Below, in pieces: positions 1,739 through 17,106 of a DNA stretch of 17,106 nucleotides. The notes beneath the pieces were generated by a model, which was given only the letters and a program-made list of their open reading frames with translations, was not told the DNA's origin and searched no databases. The position numbers and the translations under genes were made by a program. Each line of letters opens with the position of its first letter. Position 1 is the first letter of the stretch. This DNA comes from Phycisphaerae bacterium SG8_4 (GTDB lineage Bacteria > Planctomycetota > Phycisphaerae > Sedimentisphaerales > Anaerobacaceae): the NCBI GenBank assembly GCA_001303465.1, contig LJTR01000041.1:1-17106 (forward strand), read 5' to 3'.

Positions 1739-1756
1739 CGGCTATCTTGGGGAAAT

Positions 1757-2440
1757 TCAGCCGCCCTGAATCTTTCGCTTCATCTCATCCAGACGTCGAT
1801 CAACCTCGGCATCCGATTCAAGAACTTTCACACGTTCGTATGGAAAGCTGATTCCCAGCGTCCGCGTTATCTCGTCTGTGATCTCTATTTCGGCCTCCGC
1901 CTCATCGACCTTGGCTTCCATCCTTGCAACCATATCAAGGATGCTTTTGCCGGCGCCGCCTGAGAAGCTGTCCAATTTCTCATTGAGCGACAGCTCTCTT
2001 CTGATTTCCCTGCTTCTCTTTACAATATCATTCTGCTTGAGCTTCAGCTCTTTAAGGCTTTGCCGCAGTTGCTTGCGCGCCTGGGTGGCGGAATTGTAAG
2101 CCGATTCTGAAGTAGCAAGATCGTTTCTGCACTTGTTCACTTGCCTTTCCGCCTGGATTTGGGCTGCGATTGCTTGCCTGGCAGTATCCATTTCGTTGGC
2201 TTTCACCGCCAAGACGGCACCCTCTTTAAACCGAACAATCTTTCCCAATCCGGCATCCAATCTTCTGCGATCGCCTTTGACTGCCGAAAGGGCTTTTGCC
2301 TCCGCTCGGGCTGCTTCCCTGACCTTCTCTTCCATTTCCCTCATCAATTGAGGCAGGATCATTTCAGGCTCTTCCAGAGAAGCGAGAAATGCTTCGATCC
2401 GTGATTTTGTTATGGCTCTTAACCGACTTATGCGTCCCAT
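1757..2440 (-). CDS. pspA: PspA/IM30/Vipp1-family protein, paralog 1 (ESCRT-III superfamily).
   Basis: The N-terminus MGRISRLRAITKSRIEAFLASLEEPEMILPQLMREMEEKVREA matches the canonical PspA start (compare E. coli PspA [27 protein letters not shown]...). The protein is helical and coiled-coil rich (AIAAQIQAERQ...). An alternative TTG start at 2473 would overlap the upstream TGA by TTGA. Confidence 0.85.
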   Translation of the reverse strand: MGRISRLRAITKSRIEAFLASLEEPEMILPQLMREMEEKVREAARAEAKALSAVKGDRRRLDAGLGKIVRFKEGAVLAVKANEMDTARQAIAAQIQAERQVNKCRNDLATSESAYNSATQARKQLRQSLKELKLKQNDIVKRSREIRRELSLNEKLDSFSGGAGKSILDMVARMEAKVDEAEAEIEITDEITRTLGISFPYERVKVLESDAEVDRRLDEMKRKIQGG

Positions 2441-2469
2441 GTGTGGTGGTCGCTCGATTGGAGTCGACC

Positions 2470-5400: not shown

Positions 5401-7827
5401 ACGGATCCTGTCGATCATCAGGTCACCAGCAAAATACCCGTTTATCTCATCTATAGCCGTAAAGCTCTGAATCCGGTTCTGTATGCCTTTTAGAATCCTC
5501 TCCGCCGATGCCATCAGGGCCGATGCCCGCTGGTTGTGCTCGGCTACCAGTTGCACTTTTCTCGACTCAAAGGCATTGTATAATTGCTCTCTCTTTTCAG
5601 CAAGTTGCACAATGAATTGCTCAAAATCCGCGAACTTGCTCTCTAGTGTTTCGAGTTGAACCGTTACCTTCGTAAGATACTCATCGCATTTCTCAGGCGT
5701 GTTGCAGATGTCGAGATAATTGATGACCGACTGGCCAATCAGTTTTAACTGGGAACTGAATTCTGCCTGTCCCTCAATCCTCCCCAGCTCGTTAAGCTTG
5801 TTCTTCAGCGAGGATTTGACCTGATTGACCTGAGAGTAGACCAGCGAAATATTGTCGATAATCGCTATCGTTTCCGTCGCATCGGCAATCTTAAGATTGC
5901 TGACTATGTCTGTCAGCATTTCCAGTTCGTTCGCGGTCTTTTCCACTTCGGATTCGAGTTCTTTTGCCTCGGCAGCCTTGGATACCTGCGGCACCTTCTC
6001 GCCACTGCATTTGATGCTCTCTCGATAGGGATCCAACGACTGGGCTGTAAGAAGAAATTCCGCGCACATCTCCGAGAGCTTGTCGGTATGCTCGGCGACC
6101 TCCTTCTCCAGCGACTCAACGGCCTCGACGTCGGCATACTGCAGGTCTTTGAGCGATATCACTTCGCCCCGCGTGGCGCGCAGCTTCGTCAGGTGCTCGA
6201 CAAATTGATCTATATCGTCTAACTGCTCGTAGTCTATATCGCCGATCATCTCGCGCAAGTTTCGGGCAGTCTCTTCTATTCGCAGGCTGGTATTGCGCTT
6301 GGTCCTAACGACCTTTTCGAATTCATCGACGGCGGCACTTGCGGCCTCGTTTATCTGAGCCAACGGCTGCGACAGAACGAAGGTATCCTTTGAGGCGATC
6401 CAAAAATAGCTGTCTTGAATCTCCTCAGCCTTCTTCGCAACCTCGAGGTACAGGCCCGAATAGACTTCTTCCCGGTCCACGAGATTCATCAGCTCATGGC
6501 ATTCAGCCATGCAGGTGACGATATCTTTGTTGCCGATCTTATAGAGTTCCGAGTCACTCTTAACCGGTATCGAGAAATCCGGGCCATAGTAGGGGGTCTG
6601 CCATATCTGTATGGCATGATGCTTTTTTGCCTCCTCGTCCGCCCTGAAATAGATCAGAGTGCCATCGTCAAAAAACGAATAGCCATTGCACAGGACCGGC
6701 GGGCTGGCCTGTTGTTCGATTATGTTGTACGAAAGGAGAATATAAACGCCGCTGTCGCGATTGTAGAAAATGTACAAGTAATCCTCTCCGTTGGGAGAGG
6801 CGATGCGCTTTTCAAATACCATATCCTCCATTTGGGTCTCAAATTGCTTCAGCGCACCAGTTTGCAGATAATAACCTCTCGGGAAAACAATGCCGTGGTC
6901 TTCCGGGAGCAATACACACGAGTCTTTGATAGCATCGAGCCGCAGCGCTTTCTGCAACTTCTCATTGTAAAGGATGTAGCGAAACTGCCGTTCCTGGTAG
7001 GGCCGGATTTTCATCAGGATAACGTTGCCGACCACGGCATAATAGATCTCGGCGTCATTGAGTGTCTGATCAGGATCATCCACCGGTTCGCAGTAGATTC
7101 CCTCGCCCGTCTCTGTGTTGTCCTCGATCTTTACCGTCAGGTCCCCGCCGATGGTCTCCACAAATACTCTGTCTTCGATTGAAGCGTGCGGATTCCTACC
7201 GCTTCGATGCATGTCCTGAGTCACGCGCCTCCATTCGAATTCGTGCTGCGGTGGAAATACATATTCGTGGTCACTGCGGTTGTCGAGATACTGTATGCTG
7301 TCTTCTCTGATCAACCACTTGAAAGTCTTAACGTCCGAAACGCTCTTTCCGACACGGAACACCATGAACAAATGATTTCCTATGACGGCAAACTTCACAA
7401 ACCTCGTGAGCCTGTAGAACTTGTAGAGATGTTGGAAGTCCTCCTCGAATCGACGGTCAGTGATCAGATCCAGCGCGCAGGGCACAAACGTGCCGTCTTT
7501 CCATTCGTAGACCGAGAAAACATCCTCAAGCGTGGTCTCAGTCCTGAGCCCGATAAACACGTTGTAGCCGAAAATGAACTTGTCAGCGACCGGAACCACA
7601 TCTCGCGGGACGCAGTTGTTCCTGGTGGATATTCTCTTGCTTGACAGGAGTCTGCTTTCGACCGCGCCAAAGACGTCTTTTCTGGCATTGTTGAGTCTCT
7701 GCAGTCTCTGCAGAAGCTCTTTGCTGTGGGCTTTGAGCCGGTTGGTGATTATCTCGTAGGTGCCGCCCTGCAGTTGGACCTTGTCCTGACTTTCGCCCCT
7801 GGCATTGTTCGGGTCGTTCTCTGCCAT
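2470..7827 (-). CDS. Giant (1785 aa) multidomain AAA+ P-loop ATPase of unknown function, with long coiled-coil regions and a Lys-rich C-terminal tail.
   Basis: A single uninterrupted ORF with ATG at 7825-7827 and a GAGAGG Shine-Dalgarno-like element upstream. Walker A is LLLISPPGYGKTTLMEYV and Walker B is VMIYVDDIQH. A sensor-1-like VCVVMAGNP and an RFRIPDMLANRADVYNI segment follow, resembling the ...LPEALLDRFDV sensor region of MoxR/AAA_5 ATPases. A 400-500 residue central region rich in E, K, L and Q is predicted coiled coil. The C-terminus is basic (KEKRRQVKAKVTKKTSSPAKPKKAN). No TM segments are obvious. Confidence 0.8.
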   Translation of the reverse strand: MAENDPNNARGESQDKVQLQGGTYEIITNRLKAHSKELLQRLQRLNNARKDVFGAVESRLLSSKRISTRNNCVPRDVVPVADKFIFGYNVFIGLRTETTLEDVFSVYEWKDGTFVPCALDLITDRRFEEDFQHLYKFYRLTRFVKFAVIGNHLFMVFRVGKSVSDVKTFKWLIREDSIQYLDNRSDHEYVFPPQHEFEWRRVTQDMHRSGRNPHASIEDRVFVETIGGDLTVKIEDNTETGEGIYCEPVDDPDQTLNDAEIYYAVVGNVILMKIRPYQERQFRYILYNEKLQKALRLDAIKDSCVLLPEDHGIVFPRGYYLQTGALKQFETQMEDMVFEKRIASPNGEDYLYIFYNRDSGVYILLSYNIIEQQASPPVLCNGYSFFDDGTLIYFRADEEAKKHHAIQIWQTPYYGPDFSIPVKSDSELYKIGNKDIVTCMAECHELMNLVDREEVYSGLYLEVAKKAEEIQDSYFWIASKDTFVLSQPLAQINEAASAAVDEFEKVVRTKRNTSLRIEETARNLREMIGDIDYEQLDDIDQFVEHLTKLRATRGEVISLKDLQYADVEAVESLEKEVAEHTDKLSEMCAEFLLTAQSLDPYRESIKCSGEKVPQVSKAAEAKELESEVEKTANELEMLTDIVSNLKIADATETIAIIDNISLVYSQVNQVKSSLKNKLNELGRIEGQAEFSSQLKLIGQSVINYLDICNTPEKCDEYLTKVTVQLETLESKFADFEQFIVQLAEKREQLYNAFESRKVQLVAEHNQRASALMASAERILKGIQNRIQSFTAIDEINGYFAGDLMIDRIRQTIQQLIDLGDNVKAEDLKSKLKTIHQDSIRQLKDRQALYEDGENIIRLGNQRFAVNRQDLEGTIVRKEDDMYFHLTGTGFFERIDDERLNETRDVWDSNIVSETNDVYRAEYLAYKLFRQIEAACEELEFVQTSDLDAVLSRVQAYMGPRYDEGYVKGVHDCDAARILKALVDLRSRIGLLKYSTQARALGTVFWKLSENNEGKQLLNAKIKSMGQAGELFGGSDKQENYVEQIADSLSEFVETTALFDADLIDEAAEYLFYELAGDDKFIIDPCAVALKDDFESHIEQKNYSTRFTNSLDAVSADPAGNYRLLRDWVHSYVLRAGDASRIEYADEAAALLLPPNSSDAALEESTERQIAEMLGTHALISNGLYDLNYCHFMKKLRRHDEEFAPKFHQYQRCRNELVETYSHELHLEEFQPRVLTTFVRNKLIDQIYLPLIGDNLAKQIGGEGQDKRTDRQGLLLLISPPGYGKTTLMEYVANRLGLTFIKINGPAVGNRVSSVDPDEAPNAASRQELKKLNLAFEMGDNVMIYVDDIQHTNPEFLQKFISLCDAQRKVEGVYKGRSKTYDLRGKRVCVVMAGNPYTESGERFRIPDMLANRADVYNIGDIVGDNYDQFVASYIENCLTSNPVLEKLARRSQNDVYMIMRVAETGQQEGIEFEDSYSAEELDEHLSTMKKLYVVRDVVLKVNRQYILSAGQSEQYRTEPPFLLQGSYRNMNRIAGRVLPIMNDQELWNLIYSTYEQDAQTLTTGTESNLLKFRELTGRLTPEQAQRWQDIKKTFARNLLLGGDAEDNVGKVIRQLNAFSAGLESLKDVIADGISDIRSKKEAEHAEPTRDAFREVGQQVLSRMSEMIDEMKLQRAEQSKVPKTAIELKAQKDINMLTSVLEEQFRAMETWLLPMSHEEKKSKQKVIADLMERFEAMVKGYKKLIDVLKSKYEPEKEPLASKEKRRQVKAKVTKKTSSPAKPKKAN

Positions 7828-7877
7828 CCTCAGCCTCTCACAAAATCACCAGCCACACCCATTCGACTTCGCTCAGA

Positions 7878-7908
7878 GCCTGCCCTGAGCTTGTCGAACG
7901 GGGCAGGC
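7878..7908. promoter_or_regulatory. GC-rich inverted repeat (8-bp stem, 15-nt loop) in the 89-nt spacer between the flotillin and giant ATPase genes.
   Basis: GCCTGCCC (7878-7885) pairs with GGGCAGGC (7901-7908). It is not followed by a U-tract on the - strand transcript. It could be an RNA stability or processing element, or an attenuator. Confidence 0.25.
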
Positions 7909-7916
7909 CCAGCGGT

Positions 7917-9905
7917 TTACAGCCCCAGTTCCTTGACGGGCTTGTTCGCCATGCCAAGATCCTTGACGGTACTCAGCAGGTTGCTCAAAACGCCCTTGTT
8001 CTCTTTGTCGGATTTTGCTATCAGTTTGGCAACCAACGCTGAAATTGTAAGGTTCTTAATGTCTTCGGACTTCAATCCGAACTGAGAGACAAACCGTCTG
8101 ATCTGCTGTGCTGTGGTCTGCTCATCGGAGCCGATCAGGCTTTCCTTGAGATCGGTCAGCACGCCACTGTTGTTGACCGCTCTGTCCACACTCTTGCCGG
8201 TCGTTATGGCATTGACCAGCCGTTCGAAGAACTGGTTCTCGCCGCCAATGATTTCGATGTTGGCCGCCTTGAGTGCTTCAGCCACTATCTTGGCCTGCTC
8301 GGCCGCAATCTCTTTCCTGATGTTTATTTCAGCAAGTTCGATTTCCAGGTCCTTGTTGAGTCGCAGTTTGAATTCCTCGTGCTCTTTTCCGACTGCGTCA
8401 AATATCTTCATGGCCTCGGCCTTATCTCGGATGCCGTCGGCGTCGGCATGGTACTTCAACTCGAGGACCTTTGCTTCGGCAGTACCCTCCTTCTCAAGTG
8501 CAACAGCCTTTGCCTCCATCACTTCGGCCTCCGCCGTGCCCGCAACGGCATGTTCTTTCACAGAAGCCAGCGCGAGTGACTTCTTTGCCGCGGCGTTCTT
8601 CTCCGCCGCCTTGAGATTCGCATCGGCATCTATCAGTTTCTGTTCGGCGTAGAATTCCTCGGCCTTCTTCGCAGCCTCTGCGGCTTTGATGTCTTTGACG
8701 AGTGCCTGCTCGGCTTCTTCCTCGGCCTTTGTGATCTGTACGCTCTTGTGACGTTCGGCGGTCGCAAACTCCCGCGTATCCTTGATCTTCTCTTCCTCTG
8801 TCACGACGGTCTTCTCAACCATCACCCTCTCGCGGATGACAGCCTGCAGCTCCTTTTTCTCCGCCTCGACCGCTTTTTCCTTGTCGACCTGAGCTATCGA
8901 CACTACGCGTTCTCGCTCGGTGGCCTCCAACCCTCTGTCTCGCTCGACTCGCTCCAGTTCGATGGCGTCCGTACGCTCCTTGTTTCTTGTGGCGACGATA
9001 ACCTGCCGCTGCTTGTTTTGCTCGGCAACGAAGATTTCTTCCTCGGCGCTTATTCTAGCCTTCTCCGCCTTCTCTCGCTCGGCCTCCTGGACCCTCTTCG
9101 TCTCGGCCTCTTCTCTGGCCTGAATCGAGGCGATTTCGCGTTTCTGTTTTGCATCCGCCTCGGCCAGTTGCTTGTTAAGCTCAAGTATCGCTTCGTCGGC
9201 CTCTACGTTCTGTTGTGTGATGGTCTTGTCTTTTTCACGCTCGCGATCATTGGCCAGCTCATACTGTTCGGCGGTCAGCACAGTAATCTTCTTGATACCC
9301 TCGGCATCGAGGATGTTGTCGGGATTAAGCAGCTTCTTGTCAGTCTGCTCGAGGTAGTCGATGGCCGCATCCTCGAGGACATAGCCGCTCAGGTCGGTTC
9401 CAATCACTTCGAGTATCTGCTCTCGGAACCGCACACGGTCGGTATACAGTTCGACGAAGTCAAACTGCTTGCCGACTGTCTTGAGGGCTTCGGAGAACTT
9501 CGCATCGAACAGCTCGACCAATGCCTGGCGGTCGGAGGCTCTCTCACAACCCAGCGACTGAGCGACCTTGATTACGTCTTCGACCGTGTTATTGACCCGA
9601 ACAAAGAATGCGACCACGATATCCGCGCGAAGATTGTCTTTGCAGACAAGACCCTGCACGGCGCGCCGGTCGATCTCGATCCGCTTGACCGATACATCCA
9701 TGTATTCGACGCGGTGCATTATCGGTATTACGAACTTGCCTGAAAAGCTGACCTGAGTTCCGCCGACACCGTTTCGAATCAGGGCCTGCCCTTGCGACAC
9801 CTTCTTGTAACACTTGAGAAGTAAAGCAAAGAAGCCCGTGCCGACGATGGCTAAGACAACTACAGCTACAATGAATAATTCTTGTGCAAATGCAAGCATG
9901 GTCAT
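7917..9905 (-). CDS. Flotillin-like SPFH/band-7 protein (YqiK/FloT-like), 662 aa.
   Basis: N-terminal membrane hairpin LFIVAVVVLAIVGTGFFALLL. An SPFH-like region follows (GGTQVSFSGKFVIPIMHRVEYMDVSVKRIEIDRRAVQGLVCKDNLRADIVVAFFVRV). Then comes a very long Glu/Ala/Lys-rich coiled coil (EAEKKELQAVIRERV..., AEEEAEQALVKDIKAAEAAKKAEE) typical of flotillins. The ATG at 9903-9905 overlaps the NfeD stop TGA (ATGA). The ATG at 9897-9899 (third residue) has better spacing from the GGAG. Confidence 0.9.
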   Translation of the reverse strand: MTMLAFAQELFIVAVVVLAIVGTGFFALLLKCYKKVSQGQALIRNGVGGTQVSFSGKFVIPIMHRVEYMDVSVKRIEIDRRAVQGLVCKDNLRADIVVAFFVRVNNTVEDVIKVAQSLGCERASDRQALVELFDAKFSEALKTVGKQFDFVELYTDRVRFREQILEVIGTDLSGYVLEDAAIDYLEQTDKKLLNPDNILDAEGIKKITVLTAEQYELANDREREKDKTITQQNVEADEAILELNKQLAEADAKQKREIASIQAREEAETKRVQEAEREKAEKARISAEEEIFVAEQNKQRQVIVATRNKERTDAIELERVERDRGLEATERERVVSIAQVDKEKAVEAEKKELQAVIRERVMVEKTVVTEEEKIKDTREFATAERHKSVQITKAEEEAEQALVKDIKAAEAAKKAEEFYAEQKLIDADANLKAAEKNAAAKKSLALASVKEHAVAGTAEAEVMEAKAVALEKEGTAEAKVLELKYHADADGIRDKAEAMKIFDAVGKEHEEFKLRLNKDLEIELAEINIRKEIAAEQAKIVAEALKAANIEIIGGENQFFERLVNAITTGKSVDRAVNNSGVLTDLKESLIGSDEQTTAQQIRRFVSQFGLKSEDIKNLTISALVAKLIAKSDKENKGVLSNLLSTVKDLGMANKPVKELGL

Positions 9906-10588
9906 TTCTCCAATTCTAACGGTGCAATTGTATATGTTCCCTTTTCATTGTCCTTTCCAACTATCACCGCCTCATCGCCCTTGTGAAATACGTGCGCACC
10001 GTCTGAAATCACGTTAAGAACAATGGGGGCTCCCTTGGTCTTGACTTCGGCTTGCCCCATCTTGTCTGAAACCGAGGTTGTCACGACAGTGCAAATGCGA
10101 CCTATGACTTTCCTTGGGGCGTTGTAGTCCTTGTTGAACATTTCGTAGACTTTCTTAAGCGGCATGGCAAAGATCCTGCAAATAAAAAGACTCGCTACTA
10201 AGCTTATCGCGTATACCGGCACGGCGAGAAGTAATGAACTGCCCGGATTGAAGTAATGGTTGCCGAACATGCACAGCATCCACATACTCAGGATCAGAAT
10301 GCTGGACAGCAGCATGATCGGCACCTCGCCGACATAGAAGAAATGCATGATCGAACGCAGAACGCCGTGCTGACTCATATCAAGGTCGAGGTCGCCCTCC
10401 GCATCGACATCGACATCCACGTCAACGTCGCCGCCCGCCTCAAGGCCGGAATCGAAGAGTTCAACATCAAGAAAGTCAACATCCAGCGCACCCAGAATGA
10501 CGGTGATCCAGTAAATCACGTTCAGGATCAAGAGAACCGTCACAACTGCGTTTACCGGCGAAAAGGCAGTTTGGATCAAGTCAATCAT
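9902..10588 (-). CDS. NfeD/YqiJ-like membrane protein (228 aa); the usual partner of SPFH/flotillin proteins.
   Basis: Three predicted TM helices (VVTVLLILNVIYWITVILGAL, IMLLSSILILSMWMLCMFG, LLLAVPVYAISLVASLFICRIFA) and a C-terminal soluble beta-rich domain (GRICTVVTTSVSDKMGQAEVKTKGAPIVLNVISDGAHVFHKGDEAVIVGKDNEKGTYTIAPLE) resembling the NfeD OB-fold. It lies immediately upstream of flotillin, the same gene order as yqiJ-yqiK and yuaF-floT. It contains an acidic (DV)n stretch. Coordinates are taken from the ORF track. Confidence 0.75.
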   Translation of the reverse strand: MIDLIQTAFSPVNAVVTVLLILNVIYWITVILGALDVDFLDVELFDSGLEAGGDVDVDVDVDAEGDLDLDMSQHGVLRSIMHFFYVGEVPIMLLSSILILSMWMLCMFGNHYFNPGSSLLLAVPVYAISLVASLFICRIFAMPLKKVYEMFNKDYNAPRKVIGRICTVVTTSVSDKMGQAEVKTKGAPIVLNVISDGAHVFHKGDEAVIVGKDNEKGTYTIAPLELEK

Positions 10589-10606
10589 CTCATGGCCCCT
10601 TCGGTT

Positions 10607-11281
10607 CTACTGCTGCTTCTCCTCCAGCAGGTCCTTCATCGCCTCTAACTCGGCCTCAACCTGCAGGTCTCTGGATCTCTCGGCAAGTTGAATATCGGTC
10701 AGGGCGTCACTGTGGATTTCCTGCCGTATCTCCACTTCCGCTTCGGTCTGCAGGACTTCATCTTCAAGGCGATCGAAAGCGACCCCTTCTCCACTCACTG
10801 CCGCCGTTTTGTCTAAATGTTGTTCGAAGGCGTTCTGAGCTTCCGCGACTCTCTTTCTCGCTCTCAGATCCTGCAGTTTCAATTTCGCAGCCTTTAACTG
10901 CTCCTGCAGCTTCACGATGTTGTCACGCAAAACATCGTATGTCTTGCAGCCGTGTTCGACGCCCGGTTGAATCTGGCTGATCCGCTCGGCGAGCTTGACT
11001 TTTTCAGTCAGGGCCTTGCGAGCCGCCTCTTCGTCGCCCGCCTTGAGGGCTCTCTCGGCCTTGGCCTTCAACTCATCCTGTTGGGCCTTGAGCTGCTCAA
11101 GCTCTCGTTGCATGCGCTTGAATGTCGCCCCGTATGATGCGGCACTCTCGCGACCTTCCAGCACGGTCTCCTCAAGCTCTTTGATCTTTGACTCAAGTTC
11201 TTGTTCTGGAGGTTCGACCTTGTCCAGAAGCCAGTTTATGTTGGCTTTTGTGATTCTTCGCATTCTATCGAATATGGACAT
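10607..11281 (-). CDS. pspA: PspA/IM30-family protein, paralog 2, the one closest to canonical PspA.
   Basis: MSIFDRMRRITKANINWLLDKVEPPEQELESKIKELEE closely parallels the E. coli PspA N-terminus. GAGGAG lies 8 nt upstream of the ATG. The protein is all helical coiled coil and ends ...LLEEKQQ. Confidence 0.9.
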   Translation of the reverse strand: MSIFDRMRRITKANINWLLDKVEPPEQELESKIKELEETVLEGRESAASYGATFKRMQRELEQLKAQQDELKAKAERALKAGDEEAARKALTEKVKLAERISQIQPGVEHGCKTYDVLRDNIVKLQEQLKAAKLKLQDLRARKRVAEAQNAFEQHLDKTAAVSGEGVAFDRLEDEVLQTEAEVEIRQEIHSDALTDIQLAERSRDLQVEAELEAMKDLLEEKQQ

Positions 11282-11371
11282 TTCTCTATCTCCTCATTTC
11301 TCGGACCATAGGCGTAACAAATCAAAAGACTAAGAAATCATCTCAAAGACAAGTCAGACGCGGGACGGATT

Positions 11372-12070
11372 CTATTGCCCGCCGCCTTCTGTCTCACCAG
11401 CCTTTTGCCTAAGTTCGGCCAGACGTCTGTCAATTTCTGCCTCGTTGCTCAATTCCTGAAGTCTCTTCTCCAATGAGGCGCTCGCCGTCCCCTCGCCCGT
11501 GAAGCTTGCCTGGATTTCAAGCTCCGCCTCGGCCTCTTCGATTTTGGCTTCCAGTCGTGCGACTGCGTCAAGAATGCTGTCACCGGAACCGACCGTGCCA
11601 GAAACAGTGCTCTGGATCTTCTTCTGAACCTTGGCGACTCTTGCGCGGGTCAGTATCTCCTCCTTTTTGGTGCGAAGCTCTGCGAGCTGCTCCTGGATCC
11701 TCTTGCGTGACAGCGTCGCCCGCTCAAGAGAGCCTTGGGCTATTTCAAGATTCTTTTGTGAGAAGTCTGAAGCACGCTCTGCCTGAATCTGGGCATCGAG
11801 AGCCTGTCGGGCGGTCTCCTCATCACCCTTCTGCAGCGCCATGTAGGCACCGTCTCCGTACTTGTCGATCGTAGCCTTGTGCTTCTGGACTTCGCGTTCG
11901 GAATGCTTGACTGTCGCGGTGGCTTTGGCTTCGGCCTCGGTGGCAGCTTCGAGCTGTTCTTCCATCTCCTTGACCAAAACAGGAAAAACAAGCTCAGGAT
12001 CTTCAAATCTGCTTAGAAATGCCTCAATCTTACCTACGGTGACGCGGTGCAAACGTGTGAAAAGTCCCAT
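11372..12070 (-). CDS. pspA: PspA/IM30-family protein, paralog 3 (232 aa from the preferred start).
   Basis: MGLFTRLHRVTVGKIEAFLSRFEDPELVFPVLVKEMEEQLEAATEAEAKA...QKGDEETARQALDAQIQAE. The start at 12070 is preferred over the ORF-track 12094 because AGGAG lies 6 nt upstream and the N-terminus is then canonical. It is more similar to paralog 1 than to paralog 2. Confidence 0.9.
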   Translation of the reverse strand: MGLFTRLHRVTVGKIEAFLSRFEDPELVFPVLVKEMEEQLEAATEAEAKATATVKHSEREVQKHKATIDKYGDGAYMALQKGDEETARQALDAQIQAERASDFSQKNLEIAQGSLERATLSRKRIQEQLAELRTKKEEILTRARVAKVQKKIQSTVSGTVGSGDSILDAVARLEAKIEEAEAELEIQASFTGEGTASASLEKRLQELSNEAEIDRRLAELRQKAGETEGGGQ

Positions 12071-12120
12071 TGCTCTCTCCTTTCCGGCTTCCACTAAAGT
12101 ATTTAGAGAATTACCGACGA

Positions 12121-12777: not shown

Positions 12778-14226
12778 CTATTGATCAACAGTGCTTTCAT
12801 CGGGTGAAAGCTCACTGTCGCCGCTCCTTGCCTGTCCAGCTGCATTATCCATCAGTATCCGTTCGTGATGGCGCATTGCGCCGAGCGCGACCTCACAGGG
12901 AAAGGTAAACAGCTGAAACGACTCGGCTGAGATCCTGTCCTCGTCGAGGTCTTCGAGCACTCTTCTAAATATGTCAAAGAGTTTCTGGCGGACCTCGCGA
13001 AGCTCATGAATGTTCTCGATCTTGCGTGCCTGCTCGATAAGGCCCAGAATCTCCAGGTTGTACATGTCTGCCCGGTTCTTCTGTCGCTGCTGGAGACGCA
13101 ATCGAATGTGCCATATCCCGGATGCACACAGAACGATAACGGAAAGAAACAGCGCCAGAGGCTCTGCATATGTCACTATGAAGGCCGGTCTTTCACGGCG
13201 ATAGAAAGCCTTGGCGCCGGCGTGCAGGGGCACACCAAGGTCCTGGCTTGAACCGGCCAGTCGCATAGTGGCCGCACGAGGGTTTTCTGCCATCAGTTTG
13301 TTGCGATGTTCATACAGGATCTTTGTGATTACCCTGATGGCCTCTTTGTCGACTCGCTTGTGGGTTAGCAGGAGCGCTTGGACCGAAACCGAAGGAACGT
13401 CCTTCTCCGGTACGGCCGGCTCACCCCAGAATGCCGCTCTGTGGATAGCCGCGTCCGCCACGTACGGATACCATGTTCGGACGGCGTTGGCGTCAATGGC
13501 AAGCAGTCCGGCAGGCCTGTTGCTCTGCCTCAGCAGTCTGCTCATGCACTGGTTGCCGACTGCTATGAATGTGATAATTGCATCTACTTCGTTGCGAAGA
13601 AACGCATCATTGGCATCTTCAAGGCTGAGGACCTTGGAAACCGTGAGTTCATCTTCCATGCCGTAGCGCTCGACAAACCTGTAAAAGAAGGAGCCGTGGT
13701 CGTTAGGATCTGCCTCTTCGCCTAGGAGACTAGACATCACCGCAATACGTTTACCTCTGAGTCCACCGATGCTCTCGATTTCTTGGTCAGCTACAAGGTG
13801 GAGAATTTCCGGGAACAACGAAGCGACCCCCTGAACCGACGGCTTTGTCAGCGTATCATCCTGAACAATGGCAAGCTCGACTTCGCCATCTTCTAGCAGC
13901 TGCATGTTTCTGCAAGATCCGGGCGTTGGTTTGGTCTCAATTCGCACCCTCTTTTGATTATCGTTGATTACCTGTTTGAGGGTCTCGCCAAACGCGTAGT
14001 ATTCTCCGCCCTTTCCTGCTGTCGCCAGGGTTATCGACACGGGCGAATGCACGCGGATCAATTTCACTGCGAAAACCACAACCATCACGATACTTGCCAG
14101 TGCAATTGTGGCAATCAGCCTGGCGTAGAGAGATGTCCCTTCCTTGCCCTGTGGAGCTCGTGATCGCCCGGTAATCCATCGCAGCAGCGACGAGATGGTA
14201 CCGGCAAGGCTTCTAAATATTCGCAT
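12778..14226 (-). CDS. Membrane protein carrying a periplasmic TAXI-family (TRAP-associated) solute-binding domain between two TM helices, plus a cytoplasmic helical C-terminal domain; sensor or receptor-like.
   Basis: The ATG at 14226 (MRIFRS...) has AAGGAG 8 nt upstream; the ORF-track start at 14247 is TTG. TM1 is IATIALASIVMVVVFAVKLI. The TAXI signature is ATAGKGGEYYAFGETLKQV...PGSCRNMQLLEDGEVELAIVQDD...LRGKRIAVMSSLLGE. TM2 is LALFLSVIVLCASGIWHI. About 115 cytoplasmic residues follow (QQRQKNRADMYNLEILGLIEQARKIENIHELREVRQKLFDIFRRVLEDLDEDR...). No kinase or permease domain is present. Confidence 0.75.
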   Translation of the reverse strand: MRIFRSLAGTISSLLRWITGRSRAPQGKEGTSLYARLIATIALASIVMVVVFAVKLIRVHSPVSITLATAGKGGEYYAFGETLKQVINDNQKRVRIETKPTPGSCRNMQLLEDGEVELAIVQDDTLTKPSVQGVASLFPEILHLVADQEIESIGGLRGKRIAVMSSLLGEEADPNDHGSFFYRFVERYGMEDELTVSKVLSLEDANDAFLRNEVDAIITFIAVGNQCMSRLLRQSNRPAGLLAIDANAVRTWYPYVADAAIHRAAFWGEPAVPEKDVPSVSVQALLLTHKRVDKEAIRVITKILYEHRNKLMAENPRAATMRLAGSSQDLGVPLHAGAKAFYRRERPAFIVTYAEPLALFLSVIVLCASGIWHIRLRLQQRQKNRADMYNLEILGLIEQARKIENIHELREVRQKLFDIFRRVLEDLDEDRISAESFQLFTFPCEVALGAMRHHERILMDNAAGQARSGDSELSPDESTVDQ

Positions 14227-14335
14227 AGGTGTTGCTCCTTTTGTCAAGCATCTGTGCGGAGTTCTCAGTCAACGTCTTGTAGTCACTCATACAGGAAAGC
14301 ACTACTGACGATTCTTTCGCCCATTGAGGCCCTCT

Positions 14336-15097
14336 CTATGTCATCTGATCCACAGTCTGTGCGGCCTTGTCCACAACATTCATGAATCTACTATAAAGCT
14401 CCTCTGCGTCTTTTGGCGGTAATGAGGTGTCACGATCACGCAGATCGCTGACATCTCGGAGCGTGCCGGCATCGAGATCAAGTTTCTCAGCCGCAACATC
14501 GACAATCTCGTCTCTCGAAGGTAAATCCTGCCCAGTGAGAGATACGACCACACGCAGCGTTTCAAGAAGACCACCAATTGCCCGCGACATCATCTGGGTC
14601 AGCGCCCGGCCACTTGCCATTATGTAATGCCGGCGCATACGAAGCAGAAGGTTCTTGATCTGCTGCTCGCATCGCAAGCGCAGGTGCTCGCGACCGATCT
14701 TGAGGTTTCCGAGCAGATCCGAACCTGACAGCACTCTGTACGATTCCTGCATGGCAAGGAATTTAACTGGAAACACATCTGCCGATGAACGCAGATTCAT
14801 CTCGGTGATGAAGAAGGGGGCAATGCCGTGACGGCGTCCTCGCAAAACCGGATCCAGTACCTTCTTCAGGATAGGCACGTCAATGCGCTCAAGAACGACG
14901 AGAATATTGATGTCACTCTTGCCCGGCCTGTAGTCGTTGCGGGCAGCACTCCCGTAAAGACAGATGCACTTGACGTCAATATCTGATATGTCACTTAGAG
15001 TACGACAGAGTGCTGTAAGTGAGTCCTTCTCTTGTTCTGAGAGCTTTGTTCCCGACAGGTCACTTGGTTCGTTCATTTTGTTTCCCTTCACAATCAC
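14336..15097 (-). CDS. Polbeta-superfamily nucleotidyltransferase, about 246-253 aa, similar in size and architecture to KNTase/ANT(4') (N-terminal NTase domain plus C-terminal helical domain).
   Basis: The NTase motif is hG[GS]x9-13Dh[DE]h: CICLYGSAARNDYRPGKSDINILVVL. Candidate starts are GTG at 15097, 10 nt after the radical-SAM stop, or ATG at 15076 with AAGGGAAA upstream. It is co-directional with, and tightly spaced after, the radical-SAM gene. Confidence 0.8.
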   Translation of the reverse strand: MIVKGNKMNEPSDLSGTKLSEQEKDSLTALCRTLSDISDIDVKCICLYGSAARNDYRPGKSDINILVVLERIDVPILKKVLDPVLRGRRHGIAPFFITEMNLRSSADVFPVKFLAMQESYRVLSGSDLLGNLKIGREHLRLRCEQQIKNLLLRMRRHYIMASGRALTQMMSRAIGGLLETLRVVVSLTGQDLPSRDEIVDVAAEKLDLDAGTLRDVSDLRDRDTSLPPKDAEELYSRFMNVVDKAAQTVDQMT

Positions 15098-15106
15098 GTG
15101 AGCATA

Positions 15107-16168
15107 TTACTTTTTGACCAATTGGCTGTACACGGATCTTTTGCTGACGCCACCTCGGGAGCCACCCTCTGATCTTCTTTTGATATGCGCCAACAACCCG
15201 GATCGGCCTTGAACGGATCGCCGCTCGTTGCGTAGGAGAGACACTTTAGACAAGAGGTCACTGTGGTAGTATAGTTCAGCGAGCGGCGTTTCGGTGAGGT
15301 TCCCCACACGAATCGGCATGCGACGACATGGGTAGAGGTCGCCGTTAGCCTGGACCGTCAGAAGTGAATCGCCGGCAGTGCAGTGATAGGGTCTGCCGCC
15401 TGCCACGAGGAACTGAAGGGCCCGGTGCATTGCGATTTCGGTTCTCCCGAACCAGCGGCGCCTCGCCTGATTGCGGGCCTTGAGCATAGTCTCGAAGAAC
15501 TCTCGTGTTTCATCGGGCGTGAGCATCTGCTCGTGCAAACTCGAGCCGCTCCCTGTAGGGATGAGCCGGTCAGCCCAGAGGCGTGAGATTCTGAGCTTGC
15601 TTGCCAGCCGGGCAACCTCGGCAAACTCCCGGAAGTTGTCACGATGGGCCGTAAACGAGATGAAGGTTTCGATGCGCTCTGCCCTCAGAGATCTCACCGC
15701 CGCAACTGTTCGATCAAAGTTGCCTGGCCCGCGAATTCTGTCATGCGTTTCATGCGTACCTTCGATGCTCACCTGCACAAAGGCCGGGCCCAATCTGCGC
15801 AGCCGTCTGGCCATAACTGTATCGATGAAGCTCCCATTGGTGAGGATTGCAAAGCTGAAGTTCTCTCGCTTGGCCGCGAAAACCTCAAGCAAATCCAGAA
15901 AGTCCCGGCGAATAAAGGGCTCACCGCCGGTTACAGTCACATGTCCTCGAACCCGGCGTCCGCAGTCCTGTCTCCATGATTTCAGCAGATCAGTGAACTG
16001 ATCCAACACTTTGAGCAACTGCTTGAATCCGAGTTCAAGGCCGGCGTACTTGTCCTGGTAGCAGTGGGCGCACCTGAGGTTACATTGCTCAGTCAGGTGC
16101 CATTGAAGCAGCAATCCCGGCGGCACGTATCGCTCTTGACAACATATCCTCACTGTTTCCGTACTCAT
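15107..16168 (-). CDS. Radical SAM enzyme with a C-terminal twitch/partial-SPASM auxiliary-cluster motif; a putative peptide-maturase.
   Basis: The true start is ATG at 16166-16168 (MSTETVRICCQERY...), preceded by GGAGGA 9 nt upstream. CX3CX2C is CNLRCAHCY, followed by GGEPF. The C-terminal motif is CTAGDSLLTVQANGDLYPC (CX13GX4C). The ORF-track N-terminal extension MRGRLWRRRWLWRRW... is an alternate-frame reading of the upstream gene's GGC-rich tail and is not real. Confidence 0.9.
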   Translation of the reverse strand: MSTETVRICCQERYVPPGLLLQWHLTEQCNLRCAHCYQDKYAGLELGFKQLLKVLDQFTDLLKSWRQDCGRRVRGHVTVTGGEPFIRRDFLDLLEVFAAKRENFSFAILTNGSFIDTVMARRLRRLGPAFVQVSIEGTHETHDRIRGPGNFDRTVAAVRSLRAERIETFISFTAHRDNFREFAEVARLASKLRISRLWADRLIPTGSGSSLHEQMLTPDETREFFETMLKARNQARRRWFGRTEIAMHRALQFLVAGGRPYHCTAGDSLLTVQANGDLYPCRRMPIRVGNLTETPLAELYYHSDLLSKVSLLRNERRSVQGRSGLLAHIKRRSEGGSRGGVSKRSVYSQLVKK

Positions 16169-16173
16169 CAGGA

Positions 16174-17070
16174 CTATCCTCCACAACCACCACATCCGCC
16201 ACAGCCGCCGCCACCACAGCCACCGCCACCGCCGCCACAGCCACCTCCTCCTCCACAGCCGCCCCCGCAACCTCCATCGAAGTGACCACTGTGTCTGTCG
16301 GTCGCCGAAAGAACCGCCGTGCCAAAGATCGCGACGGAGAAGACAGGATTAACTTCGGAACTTCTCCAGAACCAATCGTGAGAGGTCGGCCTTCTTGGGC
16401 GGCCAAAGTGCCCTTTGAGGGCCTTGAGATAGCGACGTCCCAGTCGGGTCAGTTCAGTCCAGGGTTTCAAGGTAGCACACAGTACGATCAATGAAACGGG
16501 CAGCAGAACGGCGAGAAAGGTCGAAGGTTTTTGGCGTGTAATTCCCAGGTAGAGCTTCGTTCCTCCCACGGCCCCAATCACCAGAGCCGCGGCCAGCGCG
16601 ATCGCCCATGCCCGAGTCCTCTGGGCAGCGGTTCGCGTCAGATTCAGATCTGCAAATTCCTTATTGGTCGGTTCGAGCAGCCGTTCAATTGTCTCCTGAA
16701 GACCGGCAATGCGGGATACGGCTTGCGGGCTTGTCGATTTCTGCAGGCATTCGTAGACCGCCTTTTCAAAAGGATTCAAGAGCACTCTTCGCGCCGGTGC
16801 ATTTGTGGCCTCAAGTTCATCGTTGTAGATCTCGATTATCTTGCGGTCGCGCAGACTGAAGGCTGCGGTCTGGATCACTGCGGCCGGCCCTCCGCGCAGT
16901 GCCGCAATGGCAAATGGGTCAAAGCGGGCCAGATCCGGAAGAGGGCAGGAACCGGTACCGTCTGCATTGACGCACGCCCAGCTGCCGGCGATGCAGACAG
17001 CCGACAGGCCTGTAAAAACCAACAGAAAGGTCGGTCCCGGAATTCTCTTGAGCATCTCCACGGGCAGCAC
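16174..17070 (-). CDS. Polytopic membrane protein (at least 293 aa) with a C-terminal Gly/Cys low-complexity tail. It is possibly 5'-partial because the frame is still open at the window edge.
   Basis: Hydrophobic helices: TFLLVFTGLSAVCIAGSWA, AWAIALAAALVIGAVGG, FLAVLLPVSLIVLCATL, VFSVAIFGTAVLSA. The tail is HFDGGCGGGCGGGGGCGGGGGGCGGGGCGGCGGCGG, with stop TAG at 16174-16176. The ATG at 17055 (MLKRIPGP...) gives a signal or TM-like N-terminus. The GTG at 17070 is the ORF-track start. No in-frame stop occurs upstream through 17106. Confidence 0.8.
   Translation of the reverse strand: MLPVEMLKRIPGPTFLLVFTGLSAVCIAGSWACVNADGTGSCPLPDLARFDPFAIAALRGGPAAVIQTAAFSLRDRKIIEIYNDELEATNAPARRVLLNPFEKAVYECLQKSTSPQAVSRIAGLQETIERLLEPTNKEFADLNLTRTAAQRTRAWAIALAAALVIGAVGGTKLYLGITRQKPSTFLAVLLPVSLIVLCATLKPWTELTRLGRRYLKALKGHFGRPRRPTSHDWFWRSSEVNPVFSVAIFGTAVLSATDRHSGHFDGGCGGGCGGGGGCGGGGGGCGGGGCGGCGGCGG
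16177..16275. repeat. Imperfect (GGN/TGY)n low-complexity tract encoding the Gly/Cys tail. It causes spurious Pro-rich (+ strand) and Trp/Arg-rich (- strand) ORFs in the other frames.
   Basis: The tract ccacaaccaccacatccgccacagccgccgccaccacagccaccgccaccgccgccacagccacctcctcctccacagccgcccccgcaacctcc uses mixed Gly codons (GGA, GGT, GGC, GGG) and both Cys codons (TGT, TGC). The protein sequence is therefore conserved without the DNA being a pure microsatellite. Confidence 0.7.
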
Positions 17071-17106
17071 GTATTCAGCTTCAACCCGCTCGGATGACTC
17101 AAATTC

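Follow-up and report, generated by a model that had tools for sequence, protein, structure and literature searches.

A compact operon junction links the gene for a membrane protein with a Gly/Cys-rich tail to a radical-SAM/SPASM gene in Phycisphaerae bacterium SG8_4. The DNA analyzed here (the window) comprises positions 1 to 17,106 of contig LJTR01000041.1. The reading that we favor, and that we hold to be reasonably probable as a whole, has four parts: the junction belongs to a conserved cassette, the tail is a selected peptide, the terminal GGAGGA acts as a Shine-Dalgarno (SD) sequence with facultative translational coupling, and the radical-SAM enzyme is most likely the maturase of the tail cysteines. 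The use of the SD, the coupling and the role of the tail as enzyme substrate are what we infer from the arrangement of the genes and from their relatives. In itself the junction is no more than ordinary operon economy, within a protein-modification cassette that has received little study.

The cassette consists of one or more TIGR04222 tail proteins, an unnamed radical-SAM/SPASM enzyme and a nucleotidyltransferase-like protein, and it occurs from Planctomycetota to archaea. The pairing of these genes is widespread and apparently undescribed in the searchable literature; searches for DUF2207 with radical SAM, for ACGX with SPASM and for a Gly-Cys tail with SPASM returned nothing relevant.

Junction between the tail gene and the radical-SAM gene

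All features of the junction lie on the minus strand and were read directly from the window. The tail gene ends with ...GGT GGT TGT GGA GGA TAG, which is followed by tcctg and then by ATG. The last two Gly codons form the SD-like hexamer GGAGGA (16177..16182). The stop codon TAG of the tail protein (16174..16176) is separated by the 5-nt intergenic spacer tcctg (16169..16173) from the ATG of the radical-SAM/SPASM gene (16166..16168), and GGAGGA lies 8 nt from this ATG. This is the layout of a translationally coupled pair, and the coordinates bear out the first-pass annotation, which had built the SD of the radical-SAM gene from the terminal Gly codons and had placed TAG and ATG 5 nt apart. The start at 16168 is supported by its position 28 residues before the CxxxCxxC motif, which is the modal position among the homologues (46/120) and points to this ATG as the probable start. 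The other genes in the window have GAGGAG or AAGGAG 6-8 nt ahead of their ATG, and the 8-nt spacing of GGAGGA agrees with this. A GGAGG-stop-5nt-ATG module is also present at the preceding junction of the same operon, as seen in the public contig L084, and the 85%-identical relative L002 has TGY GGA GGN, a stop, 5 nt and ATG at three junctions.

The window alone does not indicate that GGAGGA exceeds chance, because its count equals the expectation (12 observed vs 12.0 expected), because the codon usage of the tail (GGA is 7/26 of Gly) gives a prior of about 0.27 for a terminal GGAGG and about 0.07 for a terminal GGAGGA, and because GGAGG is also found inside the tail (16243-16254). Modest support for the motif comes only from the comparative data. 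We collected 44 distinct tail-to-radical-SAM junctions and took the first ATG past the tail stop as the start of the radical-SAM gene; a rule based on the 28-residue distance to the motif was dropped after it had picked artefactual starts within the tail. Tight junctions (-4 to +6 nt) account for 24 of the 44 and loose ones, with spacers of 13-187 nt, for 19; the modal spacer is 5 nt (10/44). Of the 24 tight junctions, 11 (46%) have GGAGG among the final 9 nt of the tail, compared to 21% for windows inside the tails (p = 0.009 in a Fisher test that takes no account of phylogeny). The loose junctions have it in 4 of 19 cases, and the difference between tight and loose is not significant (p = 0.12).

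These data bear on the alternative that GGAGGA at the tail end merely results from Gly-rich coding and has not been selected as a ribosome binding site. Translation of the radical-SAM gene would then rely on termination-reinitiation across the 5-nt gap or on weak SD-independent initiation. The prior of about 0.27 for a terminal GGAGG, its presence inside the tail and the lack of GGAGGA enrichment in the window are in line with this explanation. The same is true for the many tight junctions that have no GGAGG (e.g. L005, L006, L052, L140, L141, L148) and for the TGY GGA GGN endings, which are frequent also in loose junctions and in tails with no close downstream gene. However, at tight junctions GGAGG turns up in the final 9 nt of the tail about twice as often as it does in internal windows, and the hexamer is spaced like the SDs of the window's other genes. 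Furthermore, GGA makes up 44% of the Gly codons among the last three codons of tight junctions vs 21% elsewhere, an excess that is absent in loose junctions (29% vs 27%). We therefore regard a mere by-product as the less likely explanation, albeit one of some weight, and we continue with GGAGGA as a probable SD.

In the trp and ribosomal-protein operons, the textbook cases of coupled junctions, the final part of the upstream gene contains the SD. The junction described here has a similarly short gap or overlap (5 nt, with -4, -1 or +1 in relatives), and its SD is likewise found in the last codons of the upstream ORF. The mechanism would be the same; the only oddity is that a Gly (GGN) tail makes an SD-like sequence almost cost-free. 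Because Gly codons are GGN, the DNA of the tail readily supplies GGAGG(A). With GGA GGA, TAG, 5 nt and the radical-SAM ATG in succession, a ribosome could start de novo on the SD or re-initiate after terminating 5 nt upstream. Facultative coupling of the two genes is therefore plausible, and it would help to produce the enzyme together with its neighbor.

The first-pass annotation had gone further and had argued for obligate coupling, with no enzyme made unless the tail has been translated. In such a system the radical-SAM start would be inaccessible to any ribosome that had not just translated the tail, and synthesis of the enzyme would have to follow that of its substrate. The 5-nt gap, the location of the SD within the upstream ORF and the fact that tight junctions are the majority class are what one would expect from such a system. 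In addition, the SD/AUG region is paired in the minimum free energy structure predicted from the window sequence (P(unpaired) of the SD 0.27), and folding of the junction RNA gave z = -2.9 (171 nt). However, the hairpin rests on AGGAUA at codons 7-8, which is AGCCUA in the 99.5%-identical contig L084 and in L001, where P(unpaired) of the SD rises to 0.62. Consistent sequestration is also lacking in nine further orthologous junctions, and the SD-containing hairpin was rejected as a basis for obligate coupling. The 19 loose junctions have the same implication. The annotation had named orthologues with a long spacer and an independent ribosome binding site as evidence that would contradict it, and such orthologues exist: L101, L118 and L150 carry their own GGAGG in the spacer. 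In L085-L094 another gene even lies between the tail gene and the radical-SAM gene. Because of the loose junctions, several with their own GGAGG, and because no start-hiding RNA structure is conserved, the term "obligate" is unsupported, and we consider obligate coupling very unlikely. A comparison of the orthologous loci, along the lines proposed as a check, found the tail frame conserved and the junction tight in 24 of the 44. The tight junction is common and not universal among relatives, and it is therefore an ordinary operon feature.

The Gly/Cys tail and its membrane protein

The C-terminal tail (16177..16275, minus strand) comprises 33 codons for 26 Gly and 7 Cys and ends with ...CGGCGGCGG. 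The codon counts are GGC 11, GGA 7, GGT 7, GGG 1, TGT 6 and TGC 1; all four Gly codons and both Cys codons are thus in use, as the first-pass annotation had noted. From this mixture it had concluded that selection acts on the peptide and that replication slippage does not explain the tract. Judging from its conservation, the tail is indeed under peptide-level selection. A G/C/S/D-rich end persists in 114 of 120 homologues, which are 25-50% identical, and the tail of L002 differs by 11 synonymous and only 4 non-synonymous codons, compared to 37 and 36 in the gene body. The dismissal of slippage was nevertheless too absolute. Tandem Repeats Finder (TRF) detects degenerate repeats in the tract with periods of 9-27 nt, all multiples of 3, and a related lineage has a live in-frame length polymorphism, (GGA)8-10.

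The extreme form of the slippage argument is that the tract is a non-functional low-complexity repeat made by slippage, or an assembly artefact, and that the tail frame is not real. The degenerate repeats and the copy-number variation of GGA could be quoted in its favor. However, the frame together with the terminal motif CGGCG... (CGGCGG) is kept in 110 of the 120 homologues in spite of their low identity, all observed indels are in frame, and the codons are heterogeneous, with synonymous changes in excess. Moreover, the tract differs by a single substitution from the near-identical, independent assemblies L001 and L084. This explanation is hardly credible, and an artefactual tail ORF as such is ruled out by the family-wide conservation of frame and terminal motif. 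We hence treat the tail as a selected peptide.

Three ORFs in other frames, which are present in the window at exactly the coordinates given by the first-pass annotation and which it had correctly attributed to the tract, are artefacts. The first is a Pro/Gln-rich (PQPPP) ORF on the plus strand (16064..16285), antisense to the GGN/TGY tract; the conserved frame is the tail frame on the opposite strand. The second is a W/R/L-rich (WRRRW) N-terminal extension of the radical-SAM protein (16169..16270, within the minus-strand ORF 15107..16270), which begins at a TTG at 16270 and reads the tail DNA in the radical-SAM frame. The third is a V/A/E-rich ORF in the remaining sense frame (16089..16406, minus strand). 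N-terminal extensions of the W/R/L- or V/A/E-rich type are found in the gene calls of at least 14 of the 120 public radical-SAM homologues. Because GGN/TGY tracts are free of stops in the other five frames, gene callers often extend the radical-SAM gene into the tail or call antisense Pro-rich ORFs. Recognition of the true junction corrects the annotation of the radical-SAM start site.

The tail is the end of a TIGR04222-domain membrane protein. The body of this protein (16276..17106, minus strand) is incomplete, because the window ends inside the gene and lacks its 5' end. Against the NCBIfam model TIGR04222 (cut-off 43), the portion in the window scores 114.8 bits and the full-length copy from L084 112.2 bits; both are thus members of the family. 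The 114 nt of L084 that extend past the window end reveal the true ATG 76 nt past position 17106, and the full gene encodes 335 aa. With the true ATG outside the window, the GTG at 17070 can be dismissed as a start codon. Hydropathy analysis gave four strong hydrophobic segments and a weak fifth, and the AF2 model (pLDDT 81) consists of helices and a disordered tail with pLDDT below 50. The protein is hence a multi-pass membrane protein with a low-complexity Gly/Ser/Cys C-terminal tail. With the AF2 model as query, Foldseek found nothing in the PDB at E below 0.2; the model provided no functional clue and did not settle the topology. The hydropathy profile would place the tail in the cytoplasm if only the four strong segments cross the membrane, and in the periplasm if the weak fifth one does too. 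A periplasmic location has been predicted for TIGR04222 tails (PMC12452194). A periplasmic tail would be out of reach of a cytoplasmic radical-SAM enzyme after membrane insertion.

The radical-SAM/SPASM enzyme and its cassette

The radical-SAM ORF (15107..16168) has lost 73 nt at about position 15251, a deletion that removes RALRDRSRVVDGCQGCFYSQLCRGG and shifts the reading frame; the reference for this is L084, the 99.5%-identical public contig. For the copy in this window the frameshift counts against the favored reading. The part that remains in frame (15251..16165, minus strand) was assigned by Pfam and orthologues and contains CNLRCAHC together with the initial portion of SPASM. The former C-terminal coding part (15094..15250, minus strand; ..LKCLSYATSGDPFKADPGCW..) is now out of frame, as seen in a three-frame translation against the orthologue P0121 and in a BLASTN comparison with L084. 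The CxxxCxxC motif and the Radical_SAM domain (PF04055, 1.7e-22) are both present, and SPASM (PF13186, 1.4e-06) matches only over residues 263-308. The SPASM domain of the window protein is incomplete and lacks the C-terminal Cys-rich motif, which provides ligands of the auxiliary Fe-S cluster, because the deletion removes ...GCQGCFYSQLC... and shifts the frame; the 94%-identical P0121 and L084 have the whole domain. The orthologues are 60-94% identical.

The best named NCBIfam matches of the enzyme are SbtM and then the ACGX-system radical-SAM family, both under their cut-offs. By sequence, its nearest PDB relatives are the peptide/protein maturases SkfB, PqqE, CteB and anSME (E 1e-15 to 2e-07). 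A profile search of genome contigs with the full radical-SAM alignment picked up generic patterns and mostly distant radical-SAM proteins, with at least about ten true orthologues among the matches listed; a sub-alignment specific for the orthogroup worked better on metagenomes.

The third gene of the cassette encodes a 253-aa nucleotidyltransferase-fold-like protein (14336..15097, minus strand; Pfam NTP_transf_2, 23.9 bits). Its start codon GTG and the stop codon of the intact radical-SAM frame overlap in the sequence GTGA. The gene is a recurrent neighbor, which adjoins radical-SAM orthologues in many loci and in an archaeon. A PDB sequence search with this protein gave nothing significant.

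Among the 37 unique metagenomic loci of radical-SAM orthologues with enough upstream DNA, 23 have a G/C tail that ends at most 400 nt upstream on the same strand, and a strict search found no tail gene in about 11. TIGR04222 is followed directly by radical-SAM/SPASM in Electronema, in Heliobacterium and in a Methanobacteriota archaeon. In Nostoc sp. PCC 7107 (L164) three tandem tail genes are followed, after 3 nt, by the ATG of an MNIO gene (Pfam PF05114, MbnB_TglH_ChrH).

From this context and from its relatives, the radical-SAM/SPASM enzyme is most likely a maturase, which would modify Cys residues of one or more tails. Alternatively, the enzyme might not act on the tail at all; the two proteins would then share some other function, and the unmodified tail could for example bind metal or Fe-S or serve as a flexible linker. 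The sub-threshold scores of all named radical-SAM families, the loci with no tail gene in the strict search and the possible periplasmic location of the tail are compatible with this alternative. However, the synteny is strong across bacteria and archaea, the closest named radical-SAM families are maturases of Cys-rich peptides, and in Nostoc an MNIO stands in the place of the radical-SAM enzyme. The alternative is therefore unlikely. If the enzyme is a maturase, the chemistry of the tail is directly testable in anaerobes.

Comparison with known modification systems

The closest known arrangement is that of the MNIO-TIGR04222 clusters, in which TIGR04222 membrane proteins with Cys-rich tails adjoin MNIO (DUF692, MbnB_TglH_ChrH) enzymes (Microb Genom 2025, PMC12452194). 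The protein family is the same, with several transmembrane segments and an unstructured Gly/Ser/Cys tail, and a candidate modifying enzyme is encoded downstream of tandem paralogues. The difference is that the neighbor here is a radical-SAM/SPASM enzyme; no MNIO (PF05114) was found in the 11 scanned ORFs of the window (the annotated genes and one unmatched plus-strand ORF), and the window stops short of the DNA upstream of the tail genes. The same study reports that one third of the genomes with TIGR04222 have no MNIO, and it does not mention radical-SAM partners (PMC12452194). The position of the radical-SAM gene downstream of the tail genes is thus taken by an MNIO gene in Nostoc and in the published Actinomycetota clusters.

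The best-scoring named family is that of the SbtM/SbtA thio(seleno)oxazole RiPP system (TIGR04082), which is likewise radical-SAM/SPASM. The window protein scores 142.7 bits and the intact P0121 161.3 bits, far under the cut-off of 350, and neither is assigned to the family. SbtM has 516 residues, and only profile positions 199-515 match here while 1-198 remain unaligned. Also, the SbtA system uses a short precursor peptide, whereas the substrate proposed here is a tail carried by a 335-aa membrane protein. The second-best named match, the ACGX-system family (TIGR04340), is radical-SAM/SPASM by name; with 128.3 bits for the window protein and 152.5 bits for the intact orthologue against a cut-off of 400, membership is again not indicated. 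The ACGX-system enzyme pairs with a peptide of Ala-Cys-Gly-X repeats, which is a low-complexity Cys/Gly-rich substrate. The tail described here differs in its irregular C(G)2-6 spacing, the lack of an ACGX repeat and its fusion to a membrane protein. The enzymes anSME, SkfB, PqqE and CteB are all radical-SAM proteins with SPASM-type auxiliary clusters and with peptide or protein substrates. However, the similarity is distant and their chemistry cannot be transferred; the present genes have no sulfatase, PQQ or sactipeptide context.

MNIOs turn Cys into thiooxazole (bioRxiv 10.64898/2026.06.05.730506). As a tentative extension, the radical-SAM/SPASM subfamily may be an oxygen-independent counterpart of the MNIOs, a possibility that we rate below the even chance. 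In anaerobes and in organisms of sediments, it would turn tail Cys residues into metal-binding groups of the thiooxazole or another type. Its substrate would be anchored in the membrane, the nucleotidyltransferase-like protein would be a partner, and the tight SD-in-tail junction would tie synthesis of the enzyme to that of the substrate. If true, this would be a non-orthologous enzyme replacement, similar to that between the aerobic and the anaerobic sulfatase maturases.

Anatomy and conservation of the tail-radical-SAM junction

All genes relevant to the junction lie on the minus strand. The upstream open reading frame reads ...SATDRHSGHFD, then GGCGGGCGGGGGCGGGGGGCGGGGCGGCGGCGG and then a stop, and ends at 16174. 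The junction sequence is ...GGT GGT TGT GGA GGA TAG tcctg ATG AGT ACG; direct reading places the GGAGGA hexamer at 16182-16177, the TAG stop of the tail protein at 16176-16174, the spacer tcctg at 16173-16169 and the ATG of the radical-SAM (rSAM) gene at 16168-16166. The 33 tail codons are mixed (GGC 11, GGA 7, GGT 7, GGG 1, TGT 6, TGC 1), and both this mixture and the junction layout were described correctly in the first-pass annotation. The window contains 12 copies of GGAGGA, 12 being the expected number, and 3 of these fall within the 99-nt tail. Since 27% of the Gly codons of the tail are GGA, a GGAGG at the tail end is to be expected in about 1 of 4 cases. Taken as a single-sequence event, the Shine-Dalgarno-like (SD) motif is unremarkable.

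Relatives of the rSAM gene were collected from genomes (among the matches listed), from metagenomes by means of an orthogroup-specific sub-alignment, and by exact-protein look-ups. Thirty-seven unique metagenomic loci reached 700 nt or more upstream of the rSAM motif. In 23 of them a Gly/Cys tail ended no more than 400 nt upstream on the same strand, and in 3 more it was found elsewhere in the locus. All sources together provided 44 non-identical tail-to-rSAM junctions. In 24 of these the junction is tight (-4 to +6 nt), with a modal spacing of 5 nt (10 cases), an ATGA/GTGA overlap in 4 and a 1-nt gap in 4; 19 are loose (13-187 nt), and the remaining one (locus L012) has a 7-nt overlap. Long spacers with an independent ribosome-binding site, which the first-pass annotation had named as evidence against its reading, do occur: a separate GGAGG lies inside the loose spacer of L101 and L118 (17 nt) and L150 (13 nt). 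In the contigs L085-L094 the nucleotidyltransferase-like gene, with its own AAGGAGGA, is placed between the tail gene and the rSAM gene. Because 19 loose junctions and this intervening gene stand against 24 tight junctions, the tight arrangement is the commonest, yet it is not obligatory for the system. Conservation of the layout thus holds for the clade of the window, where it is retained in L001, L002/L003, L004, L091 and L099, but is not universal.

In L085 (about 2528-2580) the tail stop TAA, 5 nt and an ATG open a 9-codon mini-ORF (MKQKNQITI), which directly precedes the nucleotidyltransferase-like gene with its own motif. This mini-ORF may be what is left of an earlier coupled start, or it may be a short leader ORF.

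The last 9 nt of the tail contain GGAGG in 11 of 24 tight junctions, compared with 103/496 (21%) of codon-aligned internal windows (Fisher p = 0.009, in a test that ignores phylogenetic relatedness). The corresponding values for loose junctions are 4/19 versus 13% (p = 0.3), and the direct contrast of tight with loose junctions is not significant (p = 0.12); phylogeny is ignored in both. Of the Gly codons at the last three positions of tight-junction tails, 44% are GGA, compared with 21% at other positions; the respective shares in loose-junction tails are 29% and 27%. At other genes of the window, GAGGAG or AAGGAG stands 6-8 nt ahead of the likely ATG. SD-led initiation is therefore in use in this organism, and a spacing of 8 nt, as at the rSAM gene, is typical. 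These comparisons offer modest evidence that the SD is under selection. The proposal that terminal Gly codons build the SD is borne out as far as the hexamer itself and the enrichment of GGAGG at tight-junction tail ends are concerned; its use as an SD is plausible.

The first-pass annotation had also argued for obligate translational coupling. Folding of the 171-nt junction region was somewhat better than that of shuffled sequences (z = -2.9), and the SD is mostly paired in the window (P(unpaired) 0.27). The pairing partner is AGGAUA in rSAM codons 7-8; the 99.5%-identical L084 and L001 read AGCCUA, and their SD is mostly open (P(unpaired) 0.62). Two adjacent substitutions at 16147-16148 separate the window from these relatives, with codons 7-8 encoding Arg-Ile here and Ser-Leu there; the only partner predicted to pair with the spacer/SD region arises from them. 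Folding of nine other orthologous junctions revealed no consistent sequestration of the SD or the AUG. Obligate coupling is not sustained by these results, since no sequestering fold is conserved in L084, L001 or the nine orthologues and 19/44 junctions are loose. The best reading is that coupling would be facultative, the rSAM start being reached by re-initiation, by direct SD-led initiation, or by both. As a junction it is ordinary for a compact operon, and more interest attaches to the cassette around it, made up of TIGR04222, rSAM/SPASM and nucleotidyltransferase-like genes.

The Gly/Cys tail and the TIGR04222 protein

The first-pass annotation had attributed the mixed codons to selection on the peptide rather than to replication slippage. 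Selection is evident: in 114/120 homologues (25-50% identity) the last 25 residues are rich in G/C/S/D with at least 2 Cys, and 110/120 have CGGCG... at the C-terminus. Compared with the 85%-identical relative L002, the tail has 21 identical codons, 11 synonymous and 4 non-synonymous differences and one in-frame codon indel, while the gene body has 37 synonymous and 36 non-synonymous differences. The near-identical L001 and L084 differ from the tail by one G-to-A change without any indel; the codon at 16212 is GGC (Gly) in the window and AGC (Ser) in both. Slippage also plays a part. TRF detected degenerate repeats in the tail with periods of 9-27 nt, every one a multiple of 3, and a homogeneous (GGA)n run in the L085-L094 tail of a related population has 8, 9 or 10 copies, always in frame. 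The copy-number variants (L085-L089 and L094, about positions 2450-2530) are otherwise near-identical contigs from related samples. This length polymorphism is typical of what slippage would produce in a homogeneous-codon tract, and the mixed codons of the window tail would fit a tract stabilised against slippage.

The upstream protein matches NCBIfam TIGR04222 with 114.8 bits (cut-off 43). At 99.5-99.9% identity, the window closely matches L084, the public contig Ga0209536_100006876, which extends 114 nt past the window end (L084 1-114) and places the true ATG 76 nt outside the window. The full gene encodes 335 aa with the N-terminus MRLEMTGLF...; it is cut by the window end (17070-17106), and the GTG at 17070 is ruled out as its start. 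It is preceded in L084 by a second Gly/Cys-tailed gene, whose junction (GGA TGT GGA GGC TAA gcgac ATG) has the same layout of GGAGG, stop, 5 nt and ATG as the tail-rSAM junction. L002 contains three tandem TIGR04222 paralogues (1258-5005; 366/284, 484 and 334 aa) with the rSAM gene last; all three end in CGGCGG, and each tail is followed by a stop, 5 nt and an ATG. At the first tail, where the stop is TAG, this ATG opens no more than a short ORF (MRLRTIN...), which may be the remnant of a start; the called second paralogue begins 182 nt downstream of this tail.

Hydropathy of the TIGR04222 protein indicates four strong transmembrane segments and a weak fifth hydrophobic segment. An N-terminal zinc-ribbon region in the middle paralogue of L002 hints that its N-terminus is cytoplasmic. 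Four strong segments together with this zinc ribbon would put the C-terminal tail in the cytoplasm; the weak fifth segment and the prediction in PMC12452194 would put it outside.

The radical-SAM gene and genes downstream

The downstream protein has Radical_SAM and SPASM domains. It reached none of the named NCBIfam families, all matches being below cut-off; the best were SbtM (142.7 bits, cut-off 350) and then the ACGX-system rSAM. Among solved structures, the nearest in sequence are SkfB, PqqE, CteB and anSME. The start at 16168 precedes CxxxCxxC by 28 residues, the distance most often seen among homologues (46/120). Three off-frame ORFs (16064-16285, plus; the N-terminal extension of 15107-16270; 16089-16406, minus) were found exactly where the first-pass annotation had placed them, and they are indeed artefacts, because no stop codon can arise in GGN/TGY DNA in either remaining sense frame or in any antisense frame. 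At least 14/120 rSAM homologues in public gene calls have W/R/L-rich or V/A/E-rich N-terminal extensions; these indicate independently that the rSAM gene follows a Gly/Cys tract in those genomes as well.

Relative to L084 (1971-2043) and the intact, 94%-identical orthologue P0121, the rSAM gene (15107-16168, minus) is missing 73 nt at ~15251. The deletion takes out RALRDRSRVVDGCQGCFYSQLCRGG, including three SPASM cysteine ligands, and shifts the frame; the remaining C-terminus (..LKCLSYATSGDPFKADPGCW..) persists as a separate ORF in another frame (15094-15309). The deletion may reflect either genuine variation or a fault in the assembly.

The TAXI-family TRAP solute-binding-like protein (NMT1_3; 12778-14247, minus) has an extra C-terminal part of ~140 residues with a hydrophobic segment, and its gene stands beside the cassette only in the closest relatives (L001, L003, L104). 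Its true start is likely the ATG at codon 8, which AAAGGAG precedes. The genes downstream of the cassette (1757-12094), all on the minus strand, encode three PspA/IM30 paralogues (1757-2473, 10607-11281 and 11372-12094), a 1785-aa DUF3686/AAA ATPase (2470-7827), an unannotated 662-aa protein (7917-9905) and a YqiJ-like membrane protein (9902-10588). This set looks like a membrane-stress module.

Partner enzymes of the cassette

The third cassette gene (14336-15097, minus) encodes a 253-aa protein with a weak nucleotidyltransferase-fold signature, for which the search by sequence found no PDB relative. Such proteins of ~250 aa (..LYGSAARNDYRPGKSDINILVV..) recur beside the rSAM gene at many loci, from Planctomycetota to a Methanobacteriota archaeon (L167, 7024-7764), and in intact relatives their start overlaps the rSAM stop (GTGA).

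TIGR04222 proteins have been proposed as substrates of Cys-modifying MNIO (DUF692) enzymes, although one third of the genomes bearing them have no MNIO; rSAM partners go unmentioned there (PMC12452194). In Nostoc sp. PCC 7107 (CP003548.1, 4156959-4167942) an MNIO gene (MbnB_TglH_ChrH) begins 3 nt after a tandem array of three TIGR04222 genes with Gly/Ser/Cys tails, whereas in the anaerobe and archaeal loci L165-L167 (Candidatus Electronema, Heliobacterium undosum and an archaeon) one tail gene is directly followed by an rSAM/SPASM gene. This suggests that the two enzymes may be alternative maturases, oxygen-dependent and oxygen-independent respectively. Given this alternation and the NCBIfam name of SbtM, thio(seleno)oxazole maturase, the most parsimonious hypothesis is that the rSAM protein would be an oxygen-independent maturase of the tail cysteines. 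This reading is qualified by the sub-cut-off scores against every named rSAM family and by the two possible placements of the tail, inside or outside the cytoplasm. The TIGR04222-rSAM pairing is apparently not described in the searchable literature; the cassette itself is a new member of known families.
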